Shown here piece by piece: positions 1,939 through 61,357 of a stretch of DNA of 64,000 nt (position 1 is the stretch's first letter; each line of letters opens with the position of its first letter). The position numbers and the translations under genes were made by a program. The notes beneath the pieces were generated by a model. The model did no database searches, was not told the origin of the DNA, and saw only the letters and a program-made list of their open reading frames with translations. Source of the stretch: a virus (Duplodnaviria; Heunggongvirae; Uroviricota; Caudoviricetes); IMG/VR virus record IMGVR_UViG_2925908680_000001; one strand, given 5' to 3'.

Positions 1939-1962
1939 GGAAATCACAAACTGAGCATACTC
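1939..1962 (+). promoter_or_regulatory. late-promoter-like element GGAAATCACAAACTG + -10-like CATACT
   Basis: Shares 15-mer with sites at 9459, 14702, 61335; 38 bp upstream of tail-fibre operon start. Confidence 0.5.
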
Positions 1963-1999
1963 TCCTTTGGTTCATTGCTTATGAAGGGGCTATGTTCGT

Positions 2000-2446
2000 A
2001 TGGCTGAAAATTTAAAGGCAAGAGATGGTAACCGCCTGTATAAGGCGCAATTGCTTTCCTACTATTATTCACGCCGCGCTGAGTCGGCGATCGGCAAAGG
2101 TGCGCGTTTTGTTATCTCTAAGGCGTATTGGTGCAAATCTAGTCTGGTAACTGCTAATGGTGCAGGAGGCTGGAATATAGCGGACATTCCACTCGATTTT
2201 AAATTGAGTAACGCTCAACAGTTTGCTGTGTCCGATCTGATATTGTCCAGTGTGGATGGGATTATCACTATCAATGCAGCCTTCCCTCAAGAAAGAATGC
2301 CGGATAACACGCCTTACGACTTTAACACGCTTGTGCTTGTTGATGCTGAGGAACAGGCTTTTGCTGTGCTTTGCACCCAGCAAGACACCCTCTATAAAGG
2401 TAAACGTTACAGTATTCTCATGACAATCGAGCAAGTTGAGGGATGA
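2000..2446 (+). CDS. first gene of tail-fibre operon (P1 R-like position)
   Basis: 148-aa ORF; stop overlaps ATG of tail-fibre gene (ATGA); synteny with P1 R-S-U. Confidence 0.4.
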   Translation: MAENLKARDGNRLYKAQLLSYYYSRRAESAIGKGARFVISKAYWCKSSLVTANGAGGWNIADIPLDFKLSNAQQFAVSDLILSSVDGIITINAAFPQERMPDNTPYDFNTLVLVDAEEQAFAVLCTQQDTLYKGKRYSILMTIEQVEG

Positions 2447-5400
2447 TTATGGGTGCTGATAAAACGAACAACATAATGACACTATCCTCTGGTGTCTCAC
2501 AGCCGTTGCTTGCTGATGTTCAATATTTCGAACTCTATAGTAGTTCGGCTCTTAACAGAAAACTTAAAAATATTGTTTTGCCGGGCTTTTACTGTGGATT
2601 TGAACCAGTTCCCGGCACAGGGTTGAGCGTCCGTATAACTTCTGAAAACTCAGAAGGTAAAGGGGCTGCTTCAGTAGATGTAAATAATGTTCAGATATCC
2701 GTTCAGCAAATAGAAGATGTGACTGTCTCGGTAAAGGCTGGGGCTACCAACATTATTGTGCTAGAAGCCAATTTTGAACATGGTGTAAAAACGACACAGG
2801 TAGAGAGCGCATCTTCTGTCAGTGCTGCAAGAATTTACGCGCGTACGGACAATACTATTGGGCAGAATCAAATTGAATTATGTCGAGTTATCGTGCCTAA
2901 CGGCGCAACGGCTGTGACGAAAGAAATGATTGTGCTTAAATACCGGGTTAACCGTGCTGTTGGTGTCGAATTCTCTAATGAAATAAGCAGTACAGAAGAA
3001 AGAAAAGCGGCTACACCTCTGGCTGTCAAAACTCTCCATGATTTGGTTGATACAAAAGCTCCGCTCGATAGTCCACATCTGTCAGGTACGCCGACTTCGC
3101 CGACACCTGAACCCGGTACAAACAACACACAGATCGCAAATGCGGCCTTTGTCTATGCTGCTATAAATGCGCTTATCAATGGTGCTCCGGGAACGATGGA
3201 CACGCTGAAAGAAATAGCGGCTGCGATCAATAACGACCCGAATTTCAGCACAACTATCAACAATGCCCTGGCTCTTAAAGCTCCTTTGGCAAGCCCGGCG
3301 TTCACAGGTACGCCGACAGCACCTACGGCCTCACAAGGCACAAATAGCACGCAGATTGCAAATACAGCCTTTGTTAAGGCAGCTATAACGGCACTTATCA
3401 ACGGTGCACCTGGCACATTGGATACGCTGAAAGAAATAGCGGCTGCGATCAATAATGACCCGAATTTCAGCACAACTATCAACAATGCCCTGGCTCTTAA
3501 AGCTCCTTTGGCAAGCCCGGCGTTCACAGGTACGCCGACAGCACCTACGGCCTCACAAGGCACAAATAGCACGCAGATTGCAAATACAGCCTTTGTTAAG
3601 GCAGCTATAACGGCACTTATCAACGGTGCACCTGGCACATTGGATACGCTGAAAGAAATAGCGGCTGCGATCAATAATGACCCGAATTTCAGCACAACTA
3701 TCAACAATGCCCTGGCTCTTAAAGCTCCTTTGGCAAGCCCGGCGTTCACAGGTACGCCGACAGCACCTACGGCCTCACAAGGCACAAATAGCACGCAGAT
3801 TGCAAATACAGCCTTTGTTAAGGCAGCTATAACGGCACTTATCAACGGTGCACCTGGCACATTGGATACGCTGAAAGAAATAGCGGCTGCGATCAATAAT
3901 GACCCGAATTTCAGCACAACTATCAACAATGCCTTGGCTCTCAAAGCGCCTTTGGCAAGCCCTGCATTAACGGGTGTCCCTACTGCGCCGACCGCCGCAC
4001 AGGGCACAAATAATACGCAGATAGCTACGACCGCTTATGTAAGAGCTGCCATATCCGCATTGGTTGGTTCATCACCAGAAGCTCTTGATACCCTGAATGA
4101 GCTTGCCGCAGCACTTGGCAATGACCCGAACTTTGCGACAACAATGACAAATGCGCTGGCAGGCAAACAGCCTCTGGATGCAACTTTAACCGCGTTTGCT
4201 GCCCTTGCGACTGGTGCAAACAAACTGCCTTATTTCACCGGTAAGGATACGGTAGCGCAGACTGATTTAACGTCAGTCGGTCGCGATATTCTGGCTAAAA
4301 CAAGCACACTGGCCGTTATCCAATACCTTGGTTTAAGAGAACTCGGAACAAGCGGTGAAAAGATCCCCCTGTTGAGCACGGCTAACACATGGAGTGCACG
4401 CCAGACTTTCAACGGCGGGATCACCGGGGCGCTGACAGGGAATGCCGACACCGCGACGAAATTGAAAACAGCCATAAACATTAATGGCGTCAGGTTCGAT
4501 GGTTCTACGAACATTTCGATACCAACAATTACGTCTAGAGGACGCGTTACTGCGCTTACCGGTACAACGCAAGGTGCTGCTACTGGATTGCAGATGTATG
4601 AGGCATACAACAATGGCTACCCTTCCCCCTATGGCAATGTGCTTCACCTTAAAGGTGCCACCGCTGCTGGCGAAGGTGAGTTATTCATTGGCTGGAGTGG
4701 CACGAGCGGTGCCCATGCGCCCGTACATATCCGTTCGCGGCGGGATACTGATTCTGCCAACTGGTCTGAATGGGCGCAGGTCTATACGTCAAAAGATTCA
4801 GTTCCCGGCGTCAATGCCAAAGGGGATCAGGATACCTCCGGCAATGCTGCTACGGCGACCAGATTGCAGACGGCGCGCACTATTAACGGTGTCTCGTTTG
4901 ATGGTTCTAAAAACATTGAGCTAACGGCGGAAGATTTAAATCTTGAGCAAACCGTAGAATTAGCCGCTGGATCATTGCAGAAAAACCAGAACGGCGCAGA
5001 TATTCCAAACAAAGATAAATTTACGCAAACAATAGGTGCTTGCCGCTCTTTTCATGGTGCTATTAGCACAGGTGCAGGAAACTGGACGACGGCACAATTG
5101 ATTGAATGGCTGGATTCTCAAGGGGCATTCAATCACCCATACTGGATGTGCAAATGTTCATGGTCATACGGCAATAATAAAATTATTACCGATACTGGCT
5201 GTGGAACTATTCATCTTGCAGGTTGCGTTATTGAGGTTATGGGTAATAAAGGTGCCATGACCATCCGTGTAACCACCCCGAGCACTTCCAGCGGTGGCGG
5301 AACTACTAATGCACAATTTACTTATATAAACCATGGCGCAGATTACGCACCAGGCTGGCGGCGTGACTACAGTACCAAAAATCAGCAGCCTGCATTTGCT

Positions 5401-5889
5401 TTAGGGCAGACAGGAAGCACAGTTGGAAATGACAAAGCTGTTGGATGGAACTCGATTAGCGGGGTTTATAACGCTAATATTGGTGGAGCATCTACGTTGA
5501 TTCTCCATTTTTATATGGGAGCTGGTAGTTGTCCGGCTGTTCAGTTCCGCGTGAATTATAAGAACGGCGGTATTTATTATCGTTCTGCGCGTGACGGTTA
5601 TGGTTTTGAAGCCGACTGGTCGGAATTTTATACTACAACACGTAAACCATCTGCGGGAGATGTTGGGGCATATACCAAAGCAGAATGTAATTCACGATTT
5701 ATTACAGGTATTCGATTAGGTACAAAATCGTCTGTGCAAACATGGAATGGTCCTGGATGGAACGATAAATCTGGTTATGTTGTTACTGCCTCAATCAACT
5801 CAAATAAGGACGAACTTATTGATACAACTCAGGCAAGGCCGGTGCAGTATTGTATCAATGGTACATGGTATAACGCGGGAAGTATTTAA
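2443..5889 (+). CDS. tail fibre protein (constant part 2443-4328 + variable tip in current orientation of invertible segment)
   Basis: 1148 aa; Gly/Ala/Thr-rich 80-aa repeats typical of phage fibres; C-terminal part shared in inverted orientation with 6983..8844; followed by Tfa chaperone. Confidence 0.85.
3061..4020 (+). repeat. 240-bp tandem repeat array inside tail-fibre gene (3 perfect copies 3301-3540/3541-3780/3781-4020 plus diverged flanking copies)
   Basis: Identical 240-nt units read directly; encode repeated 80-aa block ...[74 protein letters not shown]. Confidence 0.9.
4316..4341. other. cix-like crossover site (left): TTATCCAATACC-TT-GGTTTAAGAGAA
   Basis: Matches gix/cix/hix family half-site pattern (AAACC-NN-GGTTT core) at outer edge of inverted repeat. 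Confidence 0.75.
4329..5008. repeat. left ~680-bp inverted repeat of invertible C-segment
   Basis: Reverse complement of 8165-8844 read base by base; diverges at inner end. Confidence 0.9.
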
Positions 5890-9458: not shown

Positions 9459-9481
9459 GGAAATAACAAACTGACTAAGTT
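9459..9481 (+). promoter_or_regulatory. late-promoter-like element GGAAATAACAAACTG + -10-like TAAGTT
   Basis: Same 15-mer family as 1939/14702/61335; upstream of holin/dar operon. Confidence 0.5.
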
Positions 9482-9513: not shown

Positions 9514-9840
9514 ATGTTTGCAGATTATGAAAATCTGGCTGTAGTAGTCATAACATCCCTACTAAGTGGAACCGGCGTATTCCTTCTCGGAGTTAGAGAC
9601 GGGCGCATTTCTGCGTCCCTGCTCAATCTTGCGAGTGAATTGTTTACTGCGGTAACAGCCGGGCTTGCGGGGTATGGGGTGGCGGTTAGCCAAGAATGGC
9701 CTGAAGGTATCATTTTCTGCGTTGTTCTGATTGCCAGTAACAACGGTAGTGAAATTTTACAGGGCTTGAAGTCCAGAGCTAGTAACGTCTTGAATCTCTT
9801 AAGCGTAATAGCGAATGGGGGAAAAGGTGGAGAGAAATAA
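9514..9840 (+). CDS. holin-like small membrane protein (LydA-like position)
   Basis: 108 aa, hydrophobic segments, first gene after late-promoter-like site. Confidence 0.45.
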   Translation: MFADYENLAVVVITSLLSGTGVFLLGVRDGRISASLLNLASELFTAVTAGLAGYGVAVSQEWPEGIIFCVVLIASNNGSEILQGLKSRASNVLNLLSVIANGGKGGEK

Positions 9841-13240: not shown

Positions 13241-13294
13241 TTATCTGTTCTCACATAAATCACACACTTTTTACACTCACAGCTTTCTCTATAG

Positions 13295-14692
13295 TTGGAG
13301 TGTATTTTGAACAAATCAGTTACTTCTGCGCTTTCCGGGGCCACAGATATTAACAGCGTCATTGCTCTGGTTTCTTCATTAGAGAGGAAAGAAACACGCC
13401 TGGGGCGAAGTAGCTACGTAGTCACCAGCAAAGGTGCAGAGGTAAAGACGGCTTTTAAGGTCGTTGATGCCAGCAGTCTGATCATTTCGAACAACCTTGA
13501 CGGTACGATTAACCCGGCCTTCCCGGAAGAACTCCAACCACGAGATCGTACCCGGCTATCCAGCAAACTCCAGGTTAACCGTATTGCCTCCAATTTACGC
13601 CCGGCACAATTAACGGATTCCGGTATGAGCAGCCACGGAGCGCCGATAGTTGGTCCGGACAACGTTGTTGAATCCGGCAACGGAAGGAGTATGGGTATCT
13701 GGCGTGCCTATGAGCAAGGACAGGCGGATGAGTATCGCCAGTACCTGATCGACCATGCGAAAGAGTTTGGTCTGAATCCTGACGAAATTTCGCAAATGTC
13801 TATGCCCGTACTGGTGCGAGAAAGACTCACAGATGTAGACCGCGCTCAATTTGCCCGCGATTCAAACATTAGCGATCTGCAAGAGATGGCAGCAAGTGAA
13901 AAAGCGTATGCGGATGCGCAATTTCTCACTGAGAGCGTCATGGCGCTATTTAATCCTTCAGATGATGGAAATCTGCTGGCGCGGTCCAATGATGCGTTTA
14001 TTCGTGCGTTTTTGCGCGAAATTGGCGATACAGCGACGGCAGGCTTGCTTACTGCCGATGGGCGTCCCACGAAACAGCTTATCGATCGCATCCAGAATGC
14101 AATTTTTGCCAAAGCGTACAAGGATGAAAGGCTTGTTCGGCTGGTGTCGGAAGAGCCAGATCCGGAAATGCGTAATATCCTGACCGCATTAAATACGGCA
14201 GCCAGCGATTTTGCGCAAATGCAGTCGCTGTCTGGCGACGCTCACCATGACGCAGTAACAGGCTTAGTGGACGGTATAGAGCAGGTTAATGGCCTGGATA
14301 CACAGGCGATAGCAGCACTCCAGGAAGCAATTAATCTTGTACGTGAAGCCAAAGACAACGGTCAGGCCGTTGAAGAAGTGATCGCCCAAAGGGGGTTATT
14401 CGGCGATAGTACACCGGAAGCTGAGGCATTGGCGTTATTCATCGTAGCAAATAATCGCAGTGCGAAGCGTATGGGGGCAGCATTCAAAAAAATGGCGCAA
14501 AAAATCAACGACGAGCTGACTCATAAACAACAGGCATTGGGCGATATGTTCGGCGGTGGCGATGTTGATCTGCGTCGTATTTTGTCTGCTGTATCTGATG
14601 AAATTGAGGGTGAATTTGGCAAAGGGAAAGGTCTGAACTTTGCTATGTTTGAAAATTCTACAGGTCTAAATAATTGCAGTATGGAAAACTAA
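13295..14692 (+). CDS. hypothetical late protein
   Basis: 465 aa ORF in late gene block; no motif recognised. Confidence 0.35.
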   Translation: MECILNKSVTSALSGATDINSVIALVSSLERKETRLGRSSYVVTSKGAEVKTAFKVVDASSLIISNNLDGTINPAFPEELQPRDRTRLSSKLQVNRIASNLRPAQLTDSGMSSHGAPIVGPDNVVESGNGRSMGIWRAYEQGQADEYRQYLIDHAKEFGLNPDEISQMSMPVLVRERLTDVDRAQFARDSNISDLQEMAASEKAYADAQFLTESVMALFNPSDDGNLLARSNDAFIRAFLREIGDTATAGLLTADGRPTKQLIDRIQNAIFAKAYKDERLVRLVSEEPDPEMRNILTALNTAASDFAQMQSLSGDAHHDAVTGLVDGIEQVNGLDTQAIAALQEAINLVREAKDNGQAVEEVIAQRGLFGDSTPEAEALALFIVANNRSAKRMGAAFKKMAQKINDELTHKQQALGDMFGGGDVDLRRILSAVSDEIEGEFGKGKGLNFAMFENSTGLNNCSMEN

Positions 14693-14701: not shown

Positions 14702-14724
14702 TGAAATCACATACTGATTATGCT
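14702..14724 (+). promoter_or_regulatory. late-promoter-like element TGAAATCACATACTG + -10-like GATTAT
   Basis: Same family; 33 bp upstream of 14757 ORF. Confidence 0.5.
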
Positions 14725-14756: not shown

Positions 14757-16439
14757 ATGGCAACGAAAGACAAAAACAAAGGCTTTCTGTCAGCATTGAA
14801 GAAAGCCTTCAACGGTGGTGATGTTACGCCCGCCGAACCGGTCGTTTTTACGAGCGGGCATAGTGTCGTTGCTCGTTCCGGCCTGTCTGCTTTACGTCCA
14901 GGTATACTGGGGAGCAACAGCGATGGCATGACGAGTGCAGCAGATTCAATTTCTTTATCCGCTGAACTGCCCGGCGAGCGCCTGCAAAAGTACAACATCC
15001 TGGAAACGATGGCTAAAAGCCCGACTATCTCGACGGCTTTAAACATTCACATTGCACATGCGCTTGCGCCTTCAAAAAAAACCGGACAAGCATTCATCCT
15101 TTCGCCAAAGGATGGTTCCGATGCTGAGGCAGTAAGTAGATGTGAAGAGTTAACCGCTGATTTGGGGGCGATGATTAATGACGGACTTCCTTCATGGGCC
15201 ATGATTATGGCTATCTTTGGGGTGTCTTATGTCCGACCTTATGCTGAACAGGGCAGGGGGATAACAGGCATTGAGTCCAGTTATTACACTCTGCCACACT
15301 TCGTCCAGGAGTTTTATCGTGGTAGCCAGCTGGTAGGTTTCAGTGGTGATTACATTCTGGATACGCATAGTTTGCGCAGAGTAATAACCGAACCGTGGAA
15401 TCTGGTTTCCATGAAAAATCCCTATTGGACGCCACAGCATAAAGTTATTCCGGTTAGCTACGGCACAAAAGGGTACTCACTGTTAAGTGATCAGGCTGAT
15501 AAGCCGTTAATGGAGACGCAGAATTACGGAACTTCATTCCTGGAATACAGCTATGAACCTTACCTTAATTTATGTGCTTCGCTCGCCGCGCTGAAATCAA
15601 CGCGAAATAATGCAGCCAAAATTGACCGCCTGATTGCTCTTACGACGAACACACTGGACCCGGTTAATGCGGCGAACTATACGCGTGGCGTCAGCCAGGC
15701 ATTGAAGCGTCATAGTGACCTGGTGGCGCAAAGGTCGATTAATGCCAACGCTATTCCGACTGTGCTTAACCATCTGATACCTGTTATGGGAGACGGGAAG
15801 AACGGCATCACCATTGATACGCAATCCATACCCGCAGATATCAGTGGTATCGAAGACGTTATGTTTCACCTCCGGCAGCTTGCTGCAAGCCTCGGCATTG
15901 ACGCAACAATGCTTGGCTGGGCTGATCAGATGAGCGGAGGGCTTGGAGAAGGCGGCTGGCAGCAAACTGCTATCCAGGCTGCATTGCGTGCGAACTGGAT
16001 CAGACAGGCCGCCCAGCGAACTATTTATCGGCTTCTGGACATTCACCTCGCTTATAAATACGGCAAGGTTTACACCGAAACAAACCGCCCTTATGACGTG
16101 CAATTCAACTCAATGAACACTGCTATCCAGGAAGAGGAAAACCGAGAACTGGATGCACGCGCCAACTTTGTTGCTGTCATCTCCCAAATTATGGACCAGA
16201 TCCAGAACAACCCGAAACTGGCTGGTAGCGACGCGTTTATGCGTTATCTGTTCACTGAGCAGTTGCACATCGACGATGACACTCTCAACACCATGATCAA
16301 AGAGTTTAAGGCGAATGAATCAGAGCAAAACAACGAGCATGGTATGTACGAATCCGCGCCGTTGTCGTCCGGTGACGATCCGGAAAACTGGACGCCAGAA
16401 CAGTTAATAAACTTTGCAAAATTTGTGATGAGCAATTAA
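14757..16439 (+). CDS. putative portal/head morphogenesis protein
   Basis: 560 aa, size and position (before protease/scaffold-like gene) only. Confidence 0.3.
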   Translation: MATKDKNKGFLSALKKAFNGGDVTPAEPVVFTSGHSVVARSGLSALRPGILGSNSDGMTSAADSISLSAELPGERLQKYNILETMAKSPTISTALNIHIAHALAPSKKTGQAFILSPKDGSDAEAVSRCEELTADLGAMINDGLPSWAMIMAIFGVSYVRPYAEQGRGITGIESSYYTLPHFVQEFYRGSQLVGFSGDYILDTHSLRRVITEPWNLVSMKNPYWTPQHKVIPVSYGTKGYSLLSDQADKPLMETQNYGTSFLEYSYEPYLNLCASLAALKSTRNNAAKIDRLIALTTNTLDPVNAANYTRGVSQALKRHSDLVAQRSINANAIPTVLNHLIPVMGDGKNGITIDTQSIPADISGIEDVMFHLRQLAASLGIDATMLGWADQMSGGLGEGGWQQTAIQAALRANWIRQAAQRTIYRLLDIHLAYKYGKVYTETNRPYDVQFNSMNTAIQEEENRELDARANFVAVISQIMDQIQNNPKLAGSDAFMRYLFTEQLHIDDDTLNTMIKEFKANESEQNNEHGMYESAPLSSGDDPENWTPEQLINFAKFVMSN

Positions 16440-17469: not shown

Positions 17470-17478
17470 TTTCTAACA
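17470..17478 (-). promoter_or_regulatory. operator-like 9-mer TGTTAGAAA (minus orientation)
   Basis: Member of dispersed motif family (12 sites). Confidence 0.5.
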
Positions 17479-18677: not shown

Positions 18678-18879
18678 ATTAATTTGCTGTTTCTAAATCG
18701 GAATGTATGATCTGCATCATCGACAGAAGTCATCCATTGCTGAAATTTTTAGTTGATCTTCCATGTTTTCAGGCTTATATTCATGCCGTCGTAGCAAATT
18801 CTGCGACCAGGTTTGACAGCCTGAATGTTAGTGCGGACAACCGCAGATTTCCGATATTGCGGTATTTTTGTGTCCGTAA

Positions 18880-19020
18880 ACCGCGTTACGCCCGAATTAT
18901 GGTGGGGCGTGATGGGGAGGCTTCGGCCTGCTGGTTTCACTAACGCCAGTCTGTCAACCCTGTCACGTCCTGCCACCTGTTTGACAGCGGGTAGCAGGTT
19001 GTTAAACCTGTTAGTGAGGC
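18880..19020 (+). ncRNA. candidate C4-type antisense RNA / structured leader upstream of icd-like gene
   Basis: GC-rich hairpins in leader, position equivalent to P1 c4; not verified by covariance model. Confidence 0.3.
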
Positions 19021-20164: not shown

Positions 20165-20189
20165 GCCCCGGCCTGGCCGGGGCTTTTTT
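20165..20189 (+). terminator. rho-independent terminator gccccggc-ctg-gccggggc + TTTTTT
   Basis: 8-bp GC stem plus U-tract. Confidence 0.85.
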
Positions 20190-20674
20190 CATGCCTCATT
20201 AGTTGAGGTTGCTGCGTCTCCGACTGGTAACAGAGCGGTATTGCGTGGTTCGCCAGCAGGCCAGCGATAGCCAGACACTCTTGATGTTGGGAATGCGCGA
20301 ATATTAACCGCATCCCCCTGGTTCCCACCCAGGACAAGCAGATCGCCATTGGCGCGGCGTCCGACAACGAAGCCTACGTGCCCACCGCCTACACGGGTAA
20401 ATACAACGATACATCCGTATGCCGGTGTATCTAATTTCTCGCCCCAATCCAGATAGGATTTTGCCGACTCAAATCTTGTTGAGCGGATGCCTACACGTTC
20501 CAGCATTGCACCGACAAATGCTGCGCACCACGGCGTTTCATCGTCTTTAATTCCGCCGCGCTTGATGTCGCGCCAGAACTGAACGATTTCAGGGTTGTGT
20601 TTAGCGCCTTTTATTTCAGTCAGGCCAATGTGCTTACGGGCTTCAATTAGCCAGCGAGGTTCAATGTTTGCCAT
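20189..20674 (-). CDS. Cys/His peptidase-like protein (NlpC/P60-CHAP/TIGR02594-like)
   Basis: 161 aa; conserved WCAAFV ... GGHVGFVVG pattern. Confidence 0.5.
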   Translation of the reverse strand: MANIEPRWLIEARKHIGLTEIKGAKHNPEIVQFWRDIKRGGIKDDETPWCAAFVGAMLERVGIRSTRFESAKSYLDWGEKLDTPAYGCIVVFTRVGGGHVGFVVGRRANGDLLVLGGNQGDAVNIRAFPTSRVSGYRWPAGEPRNTALLPVGDAATSTNEA

Positions 20675-20825
20675 ATTTTTCTCCCGGTCATGGGTTAATA
20701 AGTAGGCAAACTATGGGGAGTATGTGATTTTGACGGTAGTATCGCCCCCCTGAAAATAACATTCTCCATACCCTCTCAACCGTACCGCATAGCGGAATTT
20801 TTTACGGTTTAGAGGGGGAAATCCT

Positions 20826-23800
20826 TTGGACAAACTACTTCATTCAATCAGTGAAGCCTCCAGCTTAGGCGAACTGATTGAAATTGTTAGTCGGTTGCAT
20901 AAATTACGTGCTGTTGCGACCTTTGGCGTCAGGAAAGCCGATGGCGTCAGTATTCAGAAAACACGCCGGGCAGCAAACAATGCCGCAGTAAATCTTCTTA
21001 ATTCCCTTCCGCCCGGCTTCGATGGGGCGAAATTAACTGACGAACAACGTCAGATTCTTGCTGGGTATACCGGTGAAGGCGGCCTGACAGATGGTGAGGG
21101 CAGCCAATACGAATACTACACGCCACAGTTTATGGCTGAAGGTATATGGGAGCTGTTTGCTGACTACGGTATTGATGGCGGTCACGTACTGGAACCATCA
21201 GCTGGCACGGGTATTTTCCAGGAGACAAAACGGCAGGGAATGATAATGACCAGCGCCGAGCTGTCTCCGATCTCCGGTCGAATCAACCAGCTGTTGCACC
21301 CGGAAGACGATGTGAACATTGGGGCGTTTGAGGCTCTGGCGGCGAAAGACGCAATGTATGACCACGCTGTTGGTAACGTACCGTTTGGCGAAGGCCGTTC
21401 CGGCGTTGCAGGGCTTGATCCGGCATATGCAAACGAGAAGAACGTTGGCAATTACTTTGTGCTGCGCACGATCGACAAGGTTAAACCTGGTGGGCTTATC
21501 GTATTGGTGGTGCCGAATGGCATGACTGATGGTACGAAATACAAAAAATTGCGCGATAAAGTTAGCCGTAAAGCGGAATTTTTGGGCGCGCATCGTATGC
21601 CTTCCGGTACGTTCAGTGAATCAGGTACAGATACCGTGGTGGACGTATGGGTATTGCGTAAACACCCGGAAGCCTTCCTGGAGATGATCCCCGATACGGA
21701 TGATTCGACGCTCAAATCGGCAAACGTCCTTTGGGATACCTTCCTCAAAGGGAAATGGTTTACAACCGAAGGGAAGCGATTTGTTTACGGCGACATGGAA
21801 CGTACCAGCTTCCGCAATACCCTGGTGGTGAAAAAAGACGGTCGTGTATCCAATGAGTCGATGAAAACCGCGCTATCTCGTCGCTTTGATAGTCGCATCA
21901 ATTGGGATTTGCTCGGCGTAACTACTCAGGCATGGCAGGGCGCGAAAGTGGGCGATAAACGCCTTGTAGGCGGTATCTGGCATGAGTTTGATGGTCTGAA
22001 ATGGGTTAAGGACACGACAACCAAATCCTCCGCGCTTGATGTAAGTCGATATGGTGTTTCGACGTTTGGCGATCTGCAGATCGCGTTCCAGTCAACAAAC
22101 GGGATTCTGGCTTTGTCATGGGACCAGATATCGGCGATCGCGTCCGACTATCCATCGGTTGTCAGTGATGAAGTGGCAGCAATGATTCGCTTTGCTGGCA
22201 AGCAGCGAGAAAAAGACAGGGAGCGCGTTATGCGCGGTGCACTGATAGGTCAGTTGATCAACAAGGCACTTGATTTGCGTAACCTGGGGGTGAACGTTGA
22301 TGACAAACTGGCAGATGCATCCCGCTTGGCGGCAGCAGAAGTTGCGAAGTATGGACCACCGCACGCGATTAAGCTGAATGGGCTTGCTGAAGCTGGCGCT
22401 AAAAACTGGATGACGTTCACTGGCAATGTGAAACAGGATGGTTCCACTTCTGACCTTCTGGCAGGGCGACTTGATGTAACGGATGGTGCTGCCGGTATTG
22501 ACTTTACGCGTCCTGAACAAGTGATAGCACATCTTTTTAGTGATGTAGCCCTTAATCCTATAACGCTGGGCGACTTTCGTGAGGCGTTTGCTGGTGAACT
22601 GCCAGAGGACGACGACGCGGTCCTTGAATACCTGGCGAAATTTGATGATATCGCTATTGATGGGTATGGCTGTCTGCTGCCGATGGACCGCGCCACCAGC
22701 GGCGATGTTGCAACCAAAACAGCACTGCTGGTGGGCTGGCGTGATGCGTCAACAGGTGAGCAGAAAGCGAACTTTGAGCGTCAGTTGGCGAAAATCGAAG
22801 AGAAACGCATTTTCACGCCACTAAATAAAGTCACCGTTAATCTGAATGCCCGCTGGCTGGATCGCCGCTTGATAAAAGAGTTCCTGGCAGAGCAGGGCTA
22901 TGACGAGTTTAAGTACACTGAACCTGATCTGAAGGTCGTCGATGGCATTCTGGTATCTCCGGACGATTACGAAGGTAAGGACGGGGTATTTACCGGCTAT
23001 CAGCTACGAACCGTAAACGGCAAAAACGGGAATGAGTTCAAGAAGGCCAACAATAAAGACGGCTTCCTGAACCAGTTAGAAAACTACCTGAACGGTGTTA
23101 AACCGCGTGGGCAGAACGCTAACGAGTACCTGGATAAAATTGCTCAACTGGAAGTTAGCTTTAACGACTGGTTACGCACCCACCCGCAGGCGGATCAGAT
23201 AGCCCGTGACTATAACGACGCATTCAATGGTTTCATTCCGTTCACACATTCTGACGCACCGCTTGGCCTGGAAGGGATTAGTGGAAAGCGCATTCCTCTG
23301 ACTTATCAGAATGAAGAAGTTCGGCGCTTGTCAGAAGATGGGCGTGGCATCATGGGATTTGGTACCGGGCTGGGTAAAACCACGACCGCGCTTGCGCTTG
23401 AGGCGTATAACTTCGAAACAGGTCGCACTAAACGCACGTGTATTGTTGTTCCGAAGGCGGTTTATCAGAACTGGTATCACGAGGCACAGAGTTTCTACAG
23501 TGCTGATGCCTTCGCCAATATGATGTTTATCGGTTTGGATGAAGTTCGTGATGACAGCGGAAATATTCTGACCGCGCCGGTGCTTGATGAAAATGGCGAA
23601 CCACGCCTCGACAGTAACGGGCAGCCTCTTACCAGAAATGTTGTGAAAGAGTCCTCCAGCGCCGTTATCGTTCAGCGTATGAACATGATCCCGTCGTCAA
23701 ATTGGCGAACGGTCATCATGACAAAAGAACAATTCGCGTCTATCCCGCTACGAGAAAAAACCATCGAGGAGAACTCACAGCAAGCTGTCTTTAATGCTGT

Positions 23801-26800
23801 GGAAATGGGGCGTCTTGACCTGGCGTCCGGTAAACACCGTGATGCGCAGAAGAAGAACAAGATTAAGGATCAGGCCGCGAATACCGGTACAACGAAGAAG
23901 CAGAATATCCCGTACTTTGAGGATATGAACTTCGATAGCGTGATTGCCGACGAGGGGCATAACTACCGCAACTCCTTTAATGCCGGGCGTGAAGCGGGAC
24001 AACTGGCATATTTGCCTAACCCGGCAGTATCCAAGATGGCCCGCGACATGGCTGTAAAAGCTGCGTACATGATGAAACGCAACAACGGGCGTGGTGTAGT
24101 CATGCTGACGGCAACTCCGCTGGTGAACAGTCCGATTGATGCCTTCAACATGCTGTCTACTGTCATTCCGCAGGAAGAGTGGATGCGCATGGGCATCATT
24201 ACGCCTGATGATTTCGTTCGTGTGTTTGGCAAAACAGCCACAGTTCAGGTCCAGAAAATTTCCGGGGAAGTGGAAGAGAAGCAGGGGCTGGTGGGCTTCC
24301 AGAACCTTGACGGCCTGCGTGGTATTTTCCATCGTTGGACCACTCTGAAGACTGCTGCAGATGTCGGAGCGACGGTTAAAATTCCCGACATCATCGAGAA
24401 CACCTTGCAGATCCCGATGACAGGGGAGCAGGAGACTGCTTATGAAGAGCTTCGTAAGCGTGCTCAGGAGTTAAGTCGCAATGATGAGCTGACAGTCGAT
24501 GAAAACGGGCATATCACTAACGACAAACCGGATGATTTCATTTTCTCCATCATCCGTGACATGGACAAGGTTGCTATAGACCCGGATCTGTATGCCAGTG
24601 CGATTACATTCCAGTTCCCCGTTGAGCTTGCAGACCAGGTAAAAGCTATTGCTGATGCCTTGCCAAAAGTAGCTGGCGGTAAAGTGGCAGATGATGTTGA
24701 TGAGGCCGAGGAAGACGGCGCTGGCGGGCTGGTCAGTACGCGTACCAGCAAGGTAGTGAAGACCGCTTTTAGTGAACATCCGACGCATGTTGAAATACGT
24801 GCCAGCATTGAACTGGAAGCTGAAATACTGAAGGCCATTGCGGCTGCCGGCATTGATATGCAGCAGGTATCGCACCCCATCCCGCCGAAGTATGCCGCGC
24901 TGATCGAAAATCTTCGTGAAGGTCTGAAGAACGGTAAGCAGATCGTCTTTATTGATGAAAAAGCCCAGCACCAGAAGCTGCGCCGTATTATCGCCAGTGC
25001 ACTGCAAATGCCGGAGCAGGAGATTGGCATTATCAATGCGACGACAGTTAGCCAGGCTGGTGGCATCAAGCTGAAGAAGGTGAATAAGCCGACCGAACCT
25101 ACTCCAAACAAAAACGGTGAATACAAAGAAGGGGCATGGGAAACCTACTACAGCAAACTTGCCCAATATGAGGATTATCTCTCCGCTAAAAATGATGCTG
25201 GCCTTGAGGGCATGGAAGGTATTGCCGCCGACTATAACGAAGGTCGCACGCGCATCATAATCTGTAACAAGAAGGCTGAAGTAGGTATTAACCTGCACAT
25301 CGGGACAACCGATATCCACCACCTGACACTACCCTGGACACCAGCCAGTATCGACCAACGAAATGGGCGCGGTGCGCGCGTAGGTTCACCGCAAGAAAAG
25401 GTCAATGTTCACTACTATTGTGGCAAAGGCACATTCGACGACTTCCGTCTGGATACGCTGAAACGTAAGAAAGACTGGATCAAGATGGTGATGACCTCCG
25501 ACATGTCAGAGATCGCCAATGGTGATGCGGATGATGCTGATGAACGCGCCATTATGCTGGCGGCAAACCCGGAAGAACGCCGCGCAATCATGGCTCGCCA
25601 GGCGCAAGAGCGTGAAGAACGTCTGAAACTGAAAGCACAGCGCGAGGCCAACAATGCTCTCGATATCTACCTGAAAGCGGCAAACGCCGCCGGAAAAGAT
25701 ATCGGCATGATGGAGACAGAACTGAAAAGCGCGATGGAACAGATAGAGTATTACCAGCGAAATCTTGACGACCTGATAAAAGCGGGTACGAACAGGAATG
25801 GGCAAAAATACGCACTTGAGCAGTTGAGTAGCTACAGAAAACGTGCGCGGGTGCTGCGGTTTGCGATCACCAGGGCAAAAGACGCGGATACCATAATGAA
25901 ACGCTCTCGTGGTGATGTGGAGCGCGCTATTAAGTCTGGTGTGCTGGATATCAGTATCGATGTTATTCAGAACCCACAGGAATATATGCGCACTGACAAG
26001 AATATCCTGTTGCATAAAGGTAGTTATTACCGTGCAGTCATTGATGATCGCGAAACAACAGCGATTGTCCGGGTGGAAAAAATTGACGGTGAAAAAGCAC
26101 AATACCTCTGCCGTATCGCCTGGTTGGATAGAGCAAGTCGTTACGCTCGAGCACCGGGGTCAATCGTTACATTGCCGTTTGACTCTGTGATTGAAGCGGT
26201 AACTTTTGAAGAGGGGGTAGCTGAATCGCGCGCAACGGCTGCGCGTGGTGTTCAGTGCCACCAGCTATCAACAATACTTACTCGCGATCAGTTCTATGAT
26301 GCTATTCGCAATGGGGTAATGAATGTTATTGCTGGTAAACCTGGTAATGCATGGGGCGGTGGGTCAGCGATTAAATACTGGGCATATCGCACAGATGATG
26401 GTCAGATCGCGCTGTCATCGGCCTATGATGGCGTGATAGGCCAAAAAATCGGGCGAGCATCGGATATAGCACCTGAGCGATGGATATATCCTGATGGCAA
26501 CGACGAGGCGCTGAAGCGTGAAGTGGCAAAAATACAAGCCAGTGATAACCCGCTGAATATCGTGGACGGCGAGGGATTCCTCCAGGCATTGTATGGGTAT
26601 GATTACATCCAGGGAATGCAGTCATGGGGCGCACAGGCAACGATGGATGATGTTGCCCAGGAGTTCGAAAACTGGATGGCTGGGCGTGGTCTGTCAGGTC
26701 GTTCGCTTAATAAAGTCACTTCTGAAGATATTCTTAGCTTGTTCCGCAAACCGTCCGGAGAAGGTCTGGAATCATTCTGGAGGACCGTGCTGGCATACCG

Positions 26801-27662
26801 TGTATTCCAGGGCAGGATGAAAGCCTTTAGCAATATCGATGATATTGAACGGATGTTTAATCAGGTCAAGATAGCGAAAATTAAGACGAAGATCGAAAAA
26901 ACACGTTCTGCGCTGGTGGCCTGGCGCGATGCATTGTTTGAGCAATATAAATCACTCAGTGATGCAGATGGATGGGCGGCATTGGAACAGCTGGCGAATA
27001 ATGGGGTAGATGGAGCGAAACTAGCCATTGTTCAGGCTGATAACCCCCTGGAATCACCGGCAGCACAGTGGATTAAGGTGGGGGCTGTCATCAATGCATT
27101 TGATGAAAAATACATTAGTAAGGACGATTTTGCTGATGCTGTTTCTGTTAATCGCCTGGTAGAAATGGCTACCCGTCGCGCCCGTGAGTTGAAAGACGGC
27201 GACTATGTGAATGAGTTGCCGGATGCGCTCAAATCGGCAACGTGGCAGGACTATGTATCGCTGAAAAACGGCGGGGCCACTGAATCAGAGATCGCGGAAA
27301 GGCTTGAGCAGGCTGAAAGCAAAAGAGAAGAGCAGGCGGCAGTGGCTGAAGCCAGAGCTGATGAAGCGGCGAATGATGACTATATCATTGTGGTTAATGA
27401 TAAGCCGATTCGCGCTAAGGCGCGTGTTCGCGGGCGCTGGTGGAGCGTCAGCGAGGACGTTGGCGCGGTTTATCTCATTGCCGACCAACCAGGTTCCTCG
27501 ACAATACGGAACGCCAAAGACGCGATTAAGAAGATTGGCGGGCGTTTCTGGAATTTTGAAGCAAACCCGGTTGCTGATGTGAACTTTGACCGTCCTGCAT
27601 GGATGGTATCTACGCGTTACTCGGTAGATGAACTGCGTAAAATAATCGCCGATGCGGCCTAA
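20826..27662 (+). CDS. darB: DarB-like antirestriction protein: N6-adenine methyltransferase + SF2 helicase fusion
   Basis: 2278 aa; SAM motif EPSAGTGIF, catalytic NVPFG, Walker A GFGTGLGKTT, DEGH box, helicase motif VI QRNGRGARVG; strong SD before TTG start. Confidence 0.75.
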   Translation: MDKLLHSISEASSLGELIEIVSRLHKLRAVATFGVRKADGVSIQKTRRAANNAAVNLLNSLPPGFDGAKLTDEQRQILAGYTGEGGLTDGEGSQYEYYTPQFMAEGIWELFADYGIDGGHVLEPSAGTGIFQETKRQGMIMTSAELSPISGRINQLLHPEDDVNIGAFEALAAKDAMYDHAVGNVPFGEGRSGVAGLDPAYANEKNVGNYFVLRTIDKVKPGGLIVLVVPNGMTDGTKYKKLRDKVSRKAEFLGAHRMPSGTFSESGTDTVVDVWVLRKHPEAFLEMIPDTDDSTLKSANVLWDTFLKGKWFTTEGKRFVYGDMERTSFRNTLVVKKDGRVSNESMKTALSRRFDSRINWDLLGVTTQAWQGAKVGDKRLVGGIWHEFDGLKWVKDTTTKSSALDVSRYGVSTFGDLQIAFQSTNGILALSWDQISAIASDYPSVVSDEVAAMIRFAGKQREKDRERVMRGALIGQLINKALDLRNLGVNVDDKLADASRLAAAEVAKYGPPHAIKLNGLAEAGAKNWMTFTGNVKQDGSTSDLLAGRLDVTDGAAGIDFTRPEQVIAHLFSDVALNPITLGDFREAFAGELPEDDDAVLEYLAKFDDIAIDGYGCLLPMDRATSGDVATKTALLVGWRDASTGEQKANFERQLAKIEEKRIFTPLNKVTVNLNARWLDRRLIKEFLAEQGYDEFKYTEPDLKVVDGILVSPDDYEGKDGVFTGYQLRTVNGKNGNEFKKANNKDGFLNQLENYLNGVKPRGQNANEYLDKIAQLEVSFNDWLRTHPQADQIARDYNDAFNGFIPFTHSDAPLGLEGISGKRIPLTYQNEEVRRLSEDGRGIMGFGTGLGKTTTALALEAYNFETGRTKRTCIVVPKAVYQNWYHEAQSFYSADAFANMMFIGLDEVRDDSGNILTAPVLDENGEPRLDSNGQPLTRNVVKESSSAVIVQRMNMIPSSNWRTVIMTKEQFASIPLREKTIEENSQQAVFNAVEMGRLDLASGKHRDAQKKNKIKDQAANTGTTKKQNIPYFEDMNFDSVIADEGHNYRNSFNAGREAGQLAYLPNPAVSKMARDMAVKAAYMMKRNNGRGVVMLTATPLVNSPIDAFNMLSTVIPQEEWMRMGIITPDDFVRVFGKTATVQVQKISGEVEEKQGLVGFQNLDGLRGIFHRWTTLKTAADVGATVKIPDIIENTLQIPMTGEQETAYEELRKRAQELSRNDELTVDENGHITNDKPDDFIFSIIRDMDKVAIDPDLYASAITFQFPVELADQVKAIADALPKVAGGKVADDVDEAEEDGAGGLVSTRTSKVVKTAFSEHPTHVEIRASIELEAEILKAIAAAGIDMQQVSHPIPPKYAALIENLREGLKNGKQIVFIDEKAQHQKLRRIIASALQMPEQEIGIINATTVSQAGGIKLKKVNKPTEPTPNKNGEYKEGAWETYYSKLAQYEDYLSAKNDAGLEGMEGIAADYNEGRTRIIICNKKAEVGINLHIGTTDIHHLTLPWTPASIDQRNGRGARVGSPQEKVNVHYYCGKGTFDDFRLDTLKRKKDWIKMVMTSDMSEIANGDADDADERAIMLAANPEERRAIMARQAQEREERLKLKAQREANNALDIYLKAANAAGKDIGMMETELKSAMEQIEYYQRNLDDLIKAGTNRNGQKYALEQLSSYRKRARVLRFAITRAKDADTIMKRSRGDVERAIKSGVLDISIDVIQNPQEYMRTDKNILLHKGSYYRAVIDDRETTAIVRVEKIDGEKAQYLCRIAWLDRASRYARAPGSIVTLPFDSVIEAVTFEEGVAESRATAARGVQCHQLSTILTRDQFYDAIRNGVMNVIAGKPGNAWGGGSAIKYWAYRTDDGQIALSSAYDGVIGQKIGRASDIAPERWIYPDGNDEALKREVAKIQASDNPLNIVDGEGFLQALYGYDYIQGMQSWGAQATMDDVAQEFENWMAGRGLSGRSLNKVTSEDILSLFRKPSGEGLESFWRTVLAYRVFQGRMKAFSNIDDIERMFNQVKIAKIKTKIEKTRSALVAWRDALFEQYKSLSDADGWAALEQLANNGVDGAKLAIVQADNPLESPAAQWIKVGAVINAFDEKYISKDDFADAVSVNRLVEMATRRARELKDGDYVNELPDALKSATWQDYVSLKNGGATESEIAERLEQAESKREEQAAVAEARADEAANDDYIIVVNDKPIRAKARVRGRWWSVSEDVGAVYLIADQPGSSTIRNAKDAIKKIGGRFWNFEANPVADVNFDRPAWMVSTRYSVDELRKIIADAA

Positions 27663-27698: not shown

Positions 27699-28133
27699 AT
27701 GACGACATTAATTGACACTGTAAAACCGACGGAATCCTACCTTGAGGACATTTTGCCGCAGGCGCTCAATGGCAGGAGTGAAGAGGCGTTTCTGGATGCA
27801 TATCTGAATGGCATGGTGGAAAGGCTGAAACGAGATCCACAGCTTTATCACCTTTATGGGCCGTGGTGGCCTGCGCTTAAAACGTTATTGCTGGAGCGCG
27901 GCGACATATCATTTGGACAAGTTGTAGATAGTGATGTGGCAGAGATCTACAAAATGAGTCGCCCGGCGCTTACGGTTTTGGCTGGGCATCTGTATTCGAG
28001 CGATCGCCTGGGAAATGACGCGGTATACAATCCCGTTCATGCTCTGGAAGTCGCACCTTATGCTGATGATACAGAGCCATACGTGTACATAAGTTACGAC
28101 GAGTCTATAGAGAAATATCGAATCATGGGGTAG
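27699..28133 (+). CDS. hypothetical protein
   Basis: 144 aa ORF immediately after darB. Confidence 0.4.
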   Translation: MTTLIDTVKPTESYLEDILPQALNGRSEEAFLDAYLNGMVERLKRDPQLYHLYGPWWPALKTLLLERGDISFGQVVDSDVAEIYKMSRPALTVLAGHLYSSDRLGNDAVYNPVHALEVAPYADDTEPYVYISYDESIEKYRIMG

Positions 28134-30871: not shown

Positions 30872-31018
30872 TCTAAAATCACAATCCGAATGTATTGATT
30901 GTGAAGATAACTTAACATAGAATTTTCCTTGCTGGTGGGCGGTACCCACGTTTCGCTTGCTGGGCTTGATAGTCACTTATTGGTTATTGTTCTCCCACCA
31001 GCATTTAACAAATTAAAG

Positions 31019-57843: not shown

Positions 57844-57845
57844 TT

Positions 57846-57854: not shown

Positions 57855-58173
57855 TTTAAGTTGAATTGTAAATTTCTCCGATGTACATTCACTACCGATT
57901 GGCACACCGGTCAACTTTTTGAGACAAACTGTTTAGTTTTTCGTATTATTGCCGCCGCTATACCTATGGCGGTGCAATATAGGTGGCTGAAAAGCCCCCG
58001 TTGACTCACGGTGTTCCAGCCTTTATTGCGCCGCCACCAGACCGTGGAACAGTCGATGGCGGCTCCGAAAGCAAGGAGTCACCACACTATGAACAGCTAC
58101 TGTCTTTTCCCATCACTCGTTGTCCGCCACTCACGCGATAATCTGCATTCTTTACTCGCGCTGGGGGTGTCAA

Positions 58174-58341
58174 AATGACCGTTCGCTACCTCAACTTTCA
58201 AATCCAGAACATCACTGGCGGTTGCTATGACTGGTTTGTCACTCTCGGAAAAGAAGTGATCACCGGGAAGCTGGATGAAGTGAAAGCTAAAGCAATGGCC
58301 TACGCCTGCAAGCAAGCCCGGAAGAAATCCGCCAAAGCATA
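58174..58341 (+). CDS. 55-aa small ORF
   Basis: SD-like GGGGGTG before ATG; ends before terminator; below size cutoff. Confidence 0.25.
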
Positions 58342-58446
58342 AAATACTGACTGTTGCGCCCTGGCATTATCGTGGGGTATATTTCTACGGCACCTTAGAA
58401 AAACGGGTGCCGGGATTGGAACCCCGGATAATGCAAAAGGCGACAC

Positions 58447-58470
58447 AGACGCCGAAAGCGTCTTTTTTTG
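58447..58470 (+). terminator. rho-independent terminator agacgc-cgaaa-gcgtct + TTTTTTT
   Basis: Classic. Confidence 0.85.
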
Positions 58471-58499
58471 TGTCATGCCATCGCACAGCCATACGTAGC

Positions 58500-58640
58500 G
58501 TTTAGCTCAGAGATCAATGGTAGTGCTGGCTGGGCTGCCGAAAGGCAGGCCGGTTCCCTTTTGCGCCGGTAGTTCCAACCCAGTCAGTGCTACCGCCATT
58601 GAGATTGGAACCTCACGCGGTAGCTCCTTAAATTAGCAAA
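58500..58640 (+). ncRNA. candidate C4-type antisense RNA / structured leader upstream of second icd-like gene
   Basis: Multiple GC hairpins in 140-nt leader; position as P1 c4. Confidence 0.3.
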
Positions 58641-58654
58641 AGGAGGCTGCCAAT

Positions 58655-58870
58655 ATGGCTACTATCCCTACCCCAACTCATTCTGAATTTATCTGGCGTT
58701 TCTATTCCTGCCAAAAACACCTGTATATCTGCGTCATGGCTGCTACCGAAGCAGAAGCTCGTTCATACCTTCCTGAAGAACCCTGCATTTTTGCCGCACG
58801 CTTCACTCTTGATGCGATGGAGATCCTAAATTACTGGAATCTGCCAATGAACTGCGTGGAGGTGCACTGA
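58655..58870 (+). CDS. Icd-like small protein, paralog of 19028..19252
   Basis: 71 aa; SEFIWRFYSCQKH motif. Confidence 0.45.
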   Translation: MATIPTPTHSEFIWRFYSCQKHLYICVMAATEAEARSYLPEEPCIFAARFTLDAMEILNYWNLPMNCVEVH

Positions 58871-59811: not shown

Positions 59812-59818
59812 ATGCTGC

Positions 59819-59839
59819 ATCCCCGGCGACGCCGGGGAT
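59819..59839 (+). terminator. hairpin atccccggc-gac-gccggggat
   Basis: 9-bp GC stem after ant stop; weak U-tract. Confidence 0.55.
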
Positions 59840-59870
59840 TTAACTGCCAAATAATCGGATTATCCGCACG

Positions 59871-60182
59871 ATGAAAAAAATAGATTTCACTTATTCTGCC
59901 GCCACACTTGAGCGGCGCTTCACCCTCATTAGAGAGTTGGAACTGTCAAAAGTCTGGTATCAAATCCTACTGGATGAAGAGTTTTCACTGATGGTTATAG
60001 CAGAAAAATTGGCTATGCCTAATGATCGGCACAAGGTCATAGCCAGCCTCGATCTGGTGACAAACAGATACTGGGAAACAGAGGAACTACATGAGGCGGG
60101 AGTAATTCGTGACCTGATGGAGAATTCCGTTCCCCGCCGCTATCGTGCAGGGAACGGCATCTCCGTGGTTAAAGGTGTTTAA
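59871..60182 (+). CDS. hypothetical protein
   Basis: 103 aa ORF. Confidence 0.35.
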   Translation: MKKIDFTYSAATLERRFTLIRELELSKVWYQILLDEEFSLMVIAEKLAMPNDRHKVIASLDLVTNRYWETEELHEAGVIRDLMENSVPRRYRAGNGISVVKGV

Positions 60183-60571
60183 AGCTCACCTGCGCGCTGT
60201 TTTTCAAGCACAGATTTAACATTTGGCGCTTTCCCTTTAAAAGAATGGAAAGTGCCACATTTTTCTGTTTTAACCTCGCGCAGAGCTTCGCCATCGGCGT
60301 TCTGCCATTGATGGGATAATGTCATATCACCGCGAGAAGGAACATCCAGCGAGTACAGCGTGTAAGTTCCCCCCATCTCCGCATACTCCTGGAACACATA
60401 GCTCATTACGTCAGATTCAGTTTTTCGGTGTGCGTTATCAACCTTATTCCCATTCAGAAATATGGCATCTGGATAGATTTTTATATCAAACCTACCGCAC
60501 TTAACTTGTAAATTTCCGGCGCTCGCGATCAAAGGGAAAGACGCCAGTAAAGCAATAGCCAATCTTTTCAA
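60179..60571 (-). CDS. secreted protein (signal peptide)
   Basis: 130 aa; MKRLAIALLASFPLIASA leader. Confidence 0.45.
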   Translation of the reverse strand: MKRLAIALLASFPLIASAGNLQVKCGRFDIKIYPDAIFLNGNKVDNAHRKTESDVMSYVFQEYAEMGGTYTLYSLDVPSRGDMTLSHQWQNADGEALREVKTEKCGTFHSFKGKAPNVKSVLEKQRAGEL

Positions 60572-60591
60572 TTCTGCCTCCGCTGCGTAAC

Positions 60592-61215
60592 TTATTGCCC
60601 GTATTTTTTACACCATTGCTCTGCCATTTGTTTGGCTAAAGGCCCGGCTACTGCACTGTATTCTGCTGTTTTACTTTGCACACATGAAGCAGATGGTTTT
60701 TTATTTCGCTGCTCGGTTAGTTTGCGCTCATAAGCCATCATGCTATCGAACCCGGCAATATCACTTTGGCGAAGCATTCCCTTTTTAACCAAAAATTGCT
60801 GCCCCTCGGGCACCAGCGCAAGCATAAAAAGTGGTTGTAATAACTCACCTAATCCTTGCTGGCGATACACTTCGAATTGCTGCCATCCCTGACTTAATCT
60901 GGAAAGAGTATCTTTGGTTGAATAACCTGTTTTTGTTATAGCTTTGTCCGTCAGATATGCTGTATATGCAAAAACGCAAAAGTCAGTTTTACCAATAAAC
61001 TGAGTTCCAACAGGCCGTAATGGAATGCCCTCTCTCTTGCAAAAGTCCATAATTGCCGCTTGTGAATGATCCCCACCAGCGTTATTCATAACCTGCTGCC
61101 CTGCCCTGTATTGTGCAGGTAACGCAGTTGCATTGGCTGTATTAACAGATACGCATCCCAACATAGCCGCGAGCGCGGTCCCTAAAACCCTTAACTTCAC
61201 TACACCGTCCTTCAT
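60592..61215 (-). CDS. secreted/periplasmic protein (signal peptide)
   Basis: 207 aa; hydrophobic leader ...AAMLGCVSVNTANA. Confidence 0.45.
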   Translation of the reverse strand: MKDGVVKLRVLGTALAAMLGCVSVNTANATALPAQYRAGQQVMNNAGGDHSQAAIMDFCKREGIPLRPVGTQFIGKTDFCVFAYTAYLTDKAITKTGYSTKDTLSRLSQGWQQFEVYRQQGLGELLQPLFMLALVPEGQQFLVKKGMLRQSDIAGFDSMMAYERKLTEQRNKKPSASCVQSKTAEYSAVAGPLAKQMAEQWCKKYGQ

Positions 61216-61334
61216 GTAAACAAAATGAAGTTTTATGTTACAAAAACAATCAACTACATCAACATGATTTAGGCCAAATTTCGGTCAAAAAATAAAATCC
61301 ACAAAAAGTGGTTGACACTATTTTGGAAATCACA

Positions 61335-61357
61335 AACTGCACATAATCCATCGCGCT
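61335..61357 (+). promoter_or_regulatory. late-promoter-like element GGAAATCACAAACTG + -10 CATAAT
   Basis: Best match of the four-member family. Confidence 0.55.

Follow-up and report, generated by a model that had tools for sequence, protein, structure and literature searches.

The window analysed here, a stretch of 64,000 nucleotides from the virus record IMGVR_UViG_2925908680_000001, is judged by its sequence to be a phage D6-like (P1-like) plasmid prophage, and it carries a short repeated element in front of its late-type operons. It is very likely that these sites serve a P1-like phage-plasmid of the D6 type as its late promoters, which would lack a -35 hexamer and be activated by the phage protein Lpa. 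The first 20 kb of the window aligned to Escherichia phage D6 (MF356679) with 95.6% identity over 84% of their length; alignments of P1, P7 and RCS47 to the same 20 kb were confined to the tail-fibre and cin segment. According to a gene map taken from the D6 annotation, the window covers approximately 70% of a D6-type plasmid prophage, with window coordinate x corresponding to approximately 40075 minus x on the opposite strand of D6. The kind of element is known from P1, and its box sequence, asymmetry and spacing are a lineage-specific variant, of which no description was found in a full-text literature search that did not cover the D6 genome paper.

The 15-mer GGAAATCACAAACTG, proposed as a candidate late-promoter element in a first-pass annotation of this DNA, was present exactly at positions 1939-1953 and 61325-61339, with one mismatch at 9459 and with two mismatches at 14702 (TG instead of GG, and T for A). 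These four matches at two mismatches or fewer compare with an expectation of 0.26, and none of 100 shuffled sequences reached four, establishing the repeat as real and non-random. When three mismatches were allowed, six matches were obtained against 2.36 expected, the two additional ones (38393 on the minus strand and 52803 on the plus strand) being at chance level. In all four copies a hexamer (CATACT, TAAGTT, TATGCT and CATAAT, in order of position) follows the 15-mer at a distance of exactly 2 nt, a fixed spacing that replaces the 3-5 bp first described. The starts given for three of the sites (1939, 9459 and 14702) were accurate, that of the fourth was displaced by 10 (61325, not 61335), and the weaker relative placed at 13252, ATAAATCACACACT, was found to start at 13255 and to share the same geometry (tt followed by TACACT). 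A weight-matrix scan added a divergent pair of sites, at 20732-20710 on the minus strand and 20752-20774 on the plus strand, so that at least seven sites, rather than four or five, are present in the window.

A pattern abstracted from these sites, AAATMACA-N7-YANNNT, was matched seven times in the window against an expectation of 0.27, a number reached by none of 100 shuffles. All seven matches fall wholly within non-coding DNA, which makes up 9.1% of the window and is defined as the remainder after a greedy cover by open reading frames (ORFs), and all seven are co-oriented with the next ORF, which starts 18-52 nt past the hexamer at every site except that before mat. At the mat site, the distance from the end of the hexamer is 136 nt to the annotated ATG (61484) and 95 nt to a GTG-initiated ORF at 61442. 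On its own, the 8-mer is found 17 times in the window, and its in-gene copies have no hexamer at the right distance; the box and hexamer in combination do not recur within genes, where frequent occurrence would have counted against the promoter interpretation. One candidate at 30876 (AAATCACA) was rejected as a late-promoter site, being a mere flank of an operator-like repeat without a -10 hexamer.

The extent of the conserved element was also revised. GGAAAT had been taken as the shared start of the repeat, whereas the leading GG is not conserved across the sites and is found in just three of the nine strict sites of D6. At the prt site the upstream flank in D6 is different DNA, and similarity between the window and D6 begins exactly at AAATCACA. 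Because of the poorly kept GG and this sharp boundary, the functional unit is read from the sequence as AAAT(C/A)ACAnnCT, followed by 3 nt and YAnnnT. With the hexamer set at -12 to -7, the D6 box would span approximately -27 to -16, with its centre near -21.5. The claim that no -35 hexamer is evident was borne out at 1939, 9459 and 14702, the three sites inspected, and needs qualification at 61325, where the hexamer is preceded, at a distance of 24 bp, by a conserved TTGACA, which is too far away to be usable as a -35 element.

The sites precede late-type operons, as had been proposed, namely R-S-U, lydA-lydB-hdf-darA-ddrA, prt-pro and mat-26-25, which in P1 are served by LPs, LPdar, LPpro and LPmat/LP26, respectively. 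The predicted promoter at 1939..1961 (plus strand; GGAAATCACAAACTG-ag-CATACT, hexamer at 1956-1961) lies before the R-S-U tail-fibre genes (R ATG at 2000) as the equivalent of P1 LPs, and that at 9459..9481 (plus strand; GGAAATAACAAACTG-ac-TAAGTT) lies before lydA-lydB-hdf-darA-ddrA (lydA ATG at 9514) as the equivalent of LPdar. A weaker predicted promoter at 13255..13277 (plus strand; ATAAATCACACACTT-tt-TACACT) precedes a ddrB homologue whose ORF starts at 13295, the same site being present in D6 at 27747. The portal gene (prt; ATG at 14757) and pro are preceded by the LPpro equivalent at 14702..14724 (plus strand; TGAAATCACATACTG-at-TATGCT). Of the divergent pair, the member at 20710..20732 on the minus strand (CAAAATCACATACTC-cc-CATAGT) would serve a peptidoglycan hydrolase gene (20674..20189) as a functional analogue of P1 LPlyz, and that at 20752..20774 on the plus strand (GAAAATAACATTCTC-ca-TACCCT) would serve darB (20826..27662). 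The LPmat equivalent at 61325..61347 (plus strand; GGAAATCACAAACTG-ca-CATAAT), with a predicted transcription start at approximately 61354, lies before mat-26-25.

Two further candidates may be weak late promoters. The one at 35061..35083 (plus strand; TTTTAACA-ttctcat-TATCAT), before lpa-pacA-pacB, is of low confidence and could be a self-activated lpa/pac promoter. The other, at 62392..62414 (plus strand; ATTTCACA-ccctgca-TACAGT), is proposed with low to moderate confidence as the LP26 equivalent for genes 26-25; its hexamer ends 31 nt before the ATG of gene 26 (62446), and its ATTTCACA variant is the mat-promoter box of the Enterobacter hormaechei lineage. In the complete D6 genome, nine strict matches, or eleven with a slightly relaxed pattern, were found, and every site, in the window as in D6, lies upstream of late operons. 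The D6 sites precede R/S, lydA-dar, ddrB, prt, the lysis enzyme gene, darB and mat, and additionally pmgB-sit, the major capsid gene 23, upfC and gene 7.

The presumed activator gene, lpa, is located at 35114..35506 on the plus strand, and its stop codon overlaps the start of pacA (35503). The first-pass annotation had called this gene Lpa-like, an assignment upheld by an end-to-end match to the Pfam family PF25716 (BPP1_LPA; E=5e-57) and a match to phrog_1704 (E=3e-60). The protein is 100% identical to that of D6 gene 4, annotated as a late gene activator, and 31% identical to P1 Lpa (gp10), a divergence that fits with a box unlike the AAGTnACTT of P1; no P1-type box of this form was present at any of the seven window sites. 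A search for a solved structure related to Lpa found none. The Lpa of P1 is a sequence-specific DNA-binding activator acting with SspA of Escherichia coli (PMC1891329).

Binding of Lpa, the transcription start points, late timing and the involvement of SspA are inferred here. In the mechanism proposed, Lpa would be expressed from what is probably a repressor-controlled early promoter, would bind the box in place of a -35 element and would recruit the host sigma-70 RNA polymerase, with host SspA as a possible co-activator by analogy with P1. Late in infection, the lysis, head, tail, tail-fibre and Dar operons would in this way be switched on. The earlier suggestion of activator-dependent late promoters agrees with the positions of the sites relative to operons, the presence of Lpa and the lineage-specific boxes described below, with dependence on Lpa being the inferred part.

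Relatives of the window were retrieved from plasmids in TBLASTN searches with its Lpa sequence. D6 and the window, with identical Lpa proteins, share the box AAAT(C/A)ACA (AAATCACA). A Pantoea agglomerans plasmid encoding an Lpa of 43% identity has AAA(T/G)TACA-N7-TAnnnT, and a Citrobacter freundii plasmid encoding an Lpa of 37% identity has AAAGTACA, AAATACA or AATACACA in the same geometry. The Pantoea box is found upstream of pacA, pro, the lysis enzyme gene, lydA, the capsid gene, mat and others, and that of Citrobacter upstream of lydA, ddrB, the lysis enzyme gene, the portal gene, darB, pacA, mat and gene 7; the late operons of both elements therefore keep the 8+7+6 geometry with a box of their own. 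The boxes were mutually exclusive where compared, in that the D6 box had nine matches in D6 and none in the Pantoea plasmid, and the Pantoea box nine in the Pantoea plasmid and none in D6. The same lineage-specific change of box was also followed at a single orthologous promoter, that of mat, across 17 elements. The box thus appears to change in step with the divergence of Lpa, a correlation that would be expected if Lpa reads the box.

The promoter before mat differs from the others in what follows it. A conserved structured leader RNA of approximately 105 nt is predicted at 61353..61457 on the plus strand, composed of an outer stem, two hairpins and the invariant segments UUUUGAC and GCGCGGUnGGGA, ahead of the mat ATG at 61484. 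The predicted transcription start coincides with the 5' end of this conserved structure, which supports the late-promoter interpretation of the site. The leader ends in an intrinsic terminator, with a 7-bp stem containing 6 GC pairs (61432-61450) followed by T7, and 27 nt separate the terminator from the ribosome-binding site of mat (GGAGG). P1 is without such a leader, its LPmat being located 20 nt from the mat ATG.

The fold of the leader has a predicted energy of -38.8 kcal/mol (z = -2.2), and its sequence is conserved even in the Pantoea and Citrobacter elements. In a search with a covariance model derived from five sequences of D6 type, each of the 66 loci gave a single match and P1 gave none. 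The P1-like phage-plasmids of the D6, Enterobacter, Pantoea and Citrobacter types have one copy of the leader each. Among 16 distinct leader sequences, in an alignment fitted to the model, 93% of cells pair, compared with 35-55% when partners were slid by 1-3 columns, and compensatory changes were found at 8 pairs, compared with 0-3 in the slid controls; covariation supports five helices. No Rfam family matched the leader at its gathering score, the best sub-threshold scores being 15-18 bits against thresholds of 50-70. In constrained folds no competing antiterminator helix was favoured, and the 5' domain and the terminator folded independently. No Pfam domains were detected in Mat, gp26 or the divergent upstream ORF. 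The TTGA(C/T)A hexamer upstream of this promoter (61312-61317, plus strand) is invariant in 17 of 17 lineage representatives at 24-27 bp from the -10 hexamer, and in the E. hormaechei lineage this distance is shortened by a deletion of 6 bp to the canonical 17-18 bp.

A second promoter of unusual character was identified in the gap between mat and gene 26. A weight matrix was constructed from ten annotated P1 late promoters, which themselves score 14-25 bits in leave-one-out comparisons, and the sequence at 62356-62333 on the minus strand (GTGAC AAGTGACTT tcat TAATCT) scored 21.8 bits on it. The next best match in the window scored 13.1 bits, two of 300 shuffles reached 21.8, and the window contains a sole match to the P1-type pattern, at 62351-62333 on the minus strand. 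This putative P1-type promoter points at an ORF of 44 amino acids (62272..62138, minus strand) encoding a hydrophobic protein (D6 orf77; phrog_38362, function unknown). It is kept at the same place in the 26 D6-type loci that reach that far, including D6 and Escherichia sp. E1V33, and was not found in any of the Pantoea-, Citrobacter- or Enterobacter-type loci compared. Recent import of P1 DNA was considered as its source and rejected, since in BLASTN searches against phages the mat-26 gap segment matched D6 only. The promoter may allow cross-talk, or cross-activation by the Lpa of P1.

It is tentatively proposed, with somewhat less than even confidence, that the 61325 promoter first makes a terminated RNA of approximately 105 nt, which could be a new cis-acting attenuator or antitermination target gating mat-26-25 or a late small RNA, and that the P1-type promoter at 62356-62333 (minus strand) could allow D6-type elements to sense the Lpa of a co-infecting P1.

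Several observations sit awkwardly with Lpa-activated late promoters. The D6 box lacks dyad symmetry and is placed 2 bp off the position of the 9-bp inverted repeat of P1; several of the hexamers, such as CATACT and TACCCT, are poor -10 elements; the terminator that follows the mat site is superfluous in an ordinary promoter-to-gene layout; and the co-variation of Lpa and box is correlative and drawn from three or four lineages. The lack of symmetry would also suit a late promoter at which something other than Lpa reads the box, be it another phage protein such as Mat, which has no recognisable domain, or a host factor, with Lpa acting indirectly or on the polymerase only, and one review-type source indeed terms Lpa 'an RNA polymerase binding factor' (PMC8198154). 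We regard this as unlikely, given that Lpa is the sole recognisable late activator, that the box shifts with Lpa divergence across lineages and that P1 Lpa has been described as a sequence-specific DNA-binding activator (PMC1891329). The terminator, by comparison, raises the question of whether a Q-like antiterminator is loaded at the boxes, as in lambda PR'. The 61325 site, with its conserved upstream TTGACA and an intrinsic terminator approximately 100 nt downstream, resembles the PR'-qut-tR' arrangement, and P1 has been suspected of encoding antiterminators (PMC10695390). This explanation would nonetheless fit the mat site alone, and poorly, because the distance between its TTGACA and the hexamer is variable, at 24-27 bp. 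The sites inspected at 1939, 9459 and 14702 have neither a -35 hexamer nor a canonical T-run terminator in the short interval before the start codon, each genome has 11 sites or more instead of a single one, and a homologue of Lpa is present (a homologue of Q was not searched for), leaving a Q-like role highly improbable.

A repeated intergenic motif that overlaps promoters could in principle serve as an operator, bound by the prophage repressor or by a different immunity protein. De novo 8-mer counting in the non-coding segments, however, returned two families, AAATCACA and a commoner one with the core TTTCTAACA, and it is the latter that adjoins c1, cre, the lpa region, c4/ant and early genes; the AAATCACA sites occur only before structural, lysis and Dar operons, in the strict orientation and at the fixed distance from a -10 hexamer that are features of promoters. 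This second motif, (A/T)TTAnnTTTCTAACA(T/C), has approximately 13 mostly intergenic copies beside early and immunity genes (c1, cre, repL/c4, pmgS, ref/ant and other early genes), at 17470, 18677 (minus), 28579 (minus), 29622 (minus), 30871 (minus), 31027 (minus), 39460, 40870, 53621 (minus), 57195 (minus), 57845 and others. The region upstream of lpa has merely a partial match to it (TTTTCTAA), and no P1-type C1 operator (ATTGCTCTAATAAATTT) was found in the window. The copies of this TTTCTAACA family are probably the operators of the D6 C1 repressor, a role that therefore does not fall to the AAATCACA box; we give the operator reading of that box almost no credence. Just as little can be granted to the notion that the similarity is a functionless by-product of shared ancestry or of recombination junctions between gene modules. 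The sites do lie at module boundaries, and the D6 DNA upstream of the prt site is unrelated to that of the window, but box, spacing and hexamer are kept between unrelated flanks, the architecture recurs in Pantoea and Citrobacter with other box letters, and the statistics (seven matches against 0.27 expected, four against 0.26, and seven of seven non-coding) speak against such a by-product.

Binding sites of known host factors were also considered for the box and rejected. On inspection, the box contains TCACA without the TGTGA half-site 6 bp upstream that a CRP site would have. A sigma-54 (-24/-12) promoter was dismissed, the leading GG not being conserved and no GC being present at the right distance, and a sigma-32-like CCCCAT was seen at just some Pantoea sites and one D6 site and is not general.

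Besides the operons named above, the window encodes cin, located with R-S-U, lydA-darA-ddrA-ddrB and prt-pro in a gene set that further includes repL, darB, pmgS, tRNAs, lpa-pacA-pacB, c1, cre, an early-gene block and mat-26-25. The tRNA genes number four (32097-33580). Two C4 antisense-RNA immunity loci (RF01695) were detected at 18895-18980 and 58513-58600, together with a c4-a1b1 target at 18775-18827 and an isrK-like RNA at 58390-58468.

From these sites, D6-type phage-plasmids gain a late-promoter consensus that can be put to use, along with a map of their late transcription units. Such elements are frequent in E. coli, Salmonella and Shigella, and 121 plasmids in PLSDB carry the mat promoter region of the window. 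If Lpa acts as proposed, the Lpa system would constitute a family of activator-box pairs with lineage-specific DNA codes, a possible source of orthogonal expression parts with late timing. Additional levels of late regulation are suggested by the mat leader and by the P1-type promoter within a D6-type genome, with possible cross-talk among co-resident P1-like elements.

The closest known counterparts are the late promoters of P1, of which 11 have been reported (PMC10695390). The P1 record annotates them as a 9-bp '-22 region', 4 bp and a -10 hexamer, and the extracted sequences have the form (A/G)AC-AAGTGACTT-N4-TAnnnT; the annotated LPs, LPdar, LPpro, LPmat, LP23 and LPsit precede operons orthologous to those discussed here. 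Both sets combine a -10 hexamer without a -35 element and a box centred near -22 at fixed spacing, both number approximately 11 per genome, and in both an activator of the same family is encoded adjoining pacA. The boxes themselves differ, that of P1 being the 9-bp inverted repeat AAGTnACTT at -25 to -17, with 4 bp between it and the hexamer, whereas that of D6 is an asymmetric 12-15-mer, AAAT(C/A)ACAnnCT(G), 2-3 bp before the hexamer. Compared with the reversed P1 box AAGTCACTT, the D6 box agrees at best at 6 of 9 positions, after a 2-bp shift, and because it is no dyad and carries this offset, homology of the two boxes is uncertain. In P1 (AF234172) a single match to the D6 pattern was found, AAATCACAAAGTACATACCGT at 31571-31591 on the minus strand, 39 nt upstream of lydC, which at an expectation of 0.15 may be about chance level. 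The D6-type lpa also differs from that of P1 in overlapping pacA, so that a separate LPpac would not fit between them.

Positive control of late genes is shared with lambda PR' and its Q-dependent antitermination, although among the sites described here only that before mat has the arrangement of a promoter followed by a short terminated transcript. The PR' promoter carries a Q-binding element between its -35 and -10 hexamers, 6S RNA and the terminator tR' being the other parts of the system, and lambda relies on this one late promoter, with normal -35 and -10 hexamers and a pause signal, whereas the D6-type elements would employ many promoters without a -35 hexamer together with Lpa. There is also a resemblance to the Mor/C-dependent promoters of Mu and the Ogr/Delta-dependent promoters of P2/P4, which likewise have a poor or missing -35 hexamer and need a small phage-encoded activator. 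These are sigma-70 promoters at which the activator binds just upstream of, or overlapping, the -35 region. The Mu and P2 activators nevertheless belong to unrelated families and recognise dyad sites located further upstream (approximately -43 in Mu and -55 in P2), whilst the D6 box abuts the -10 hexamer.

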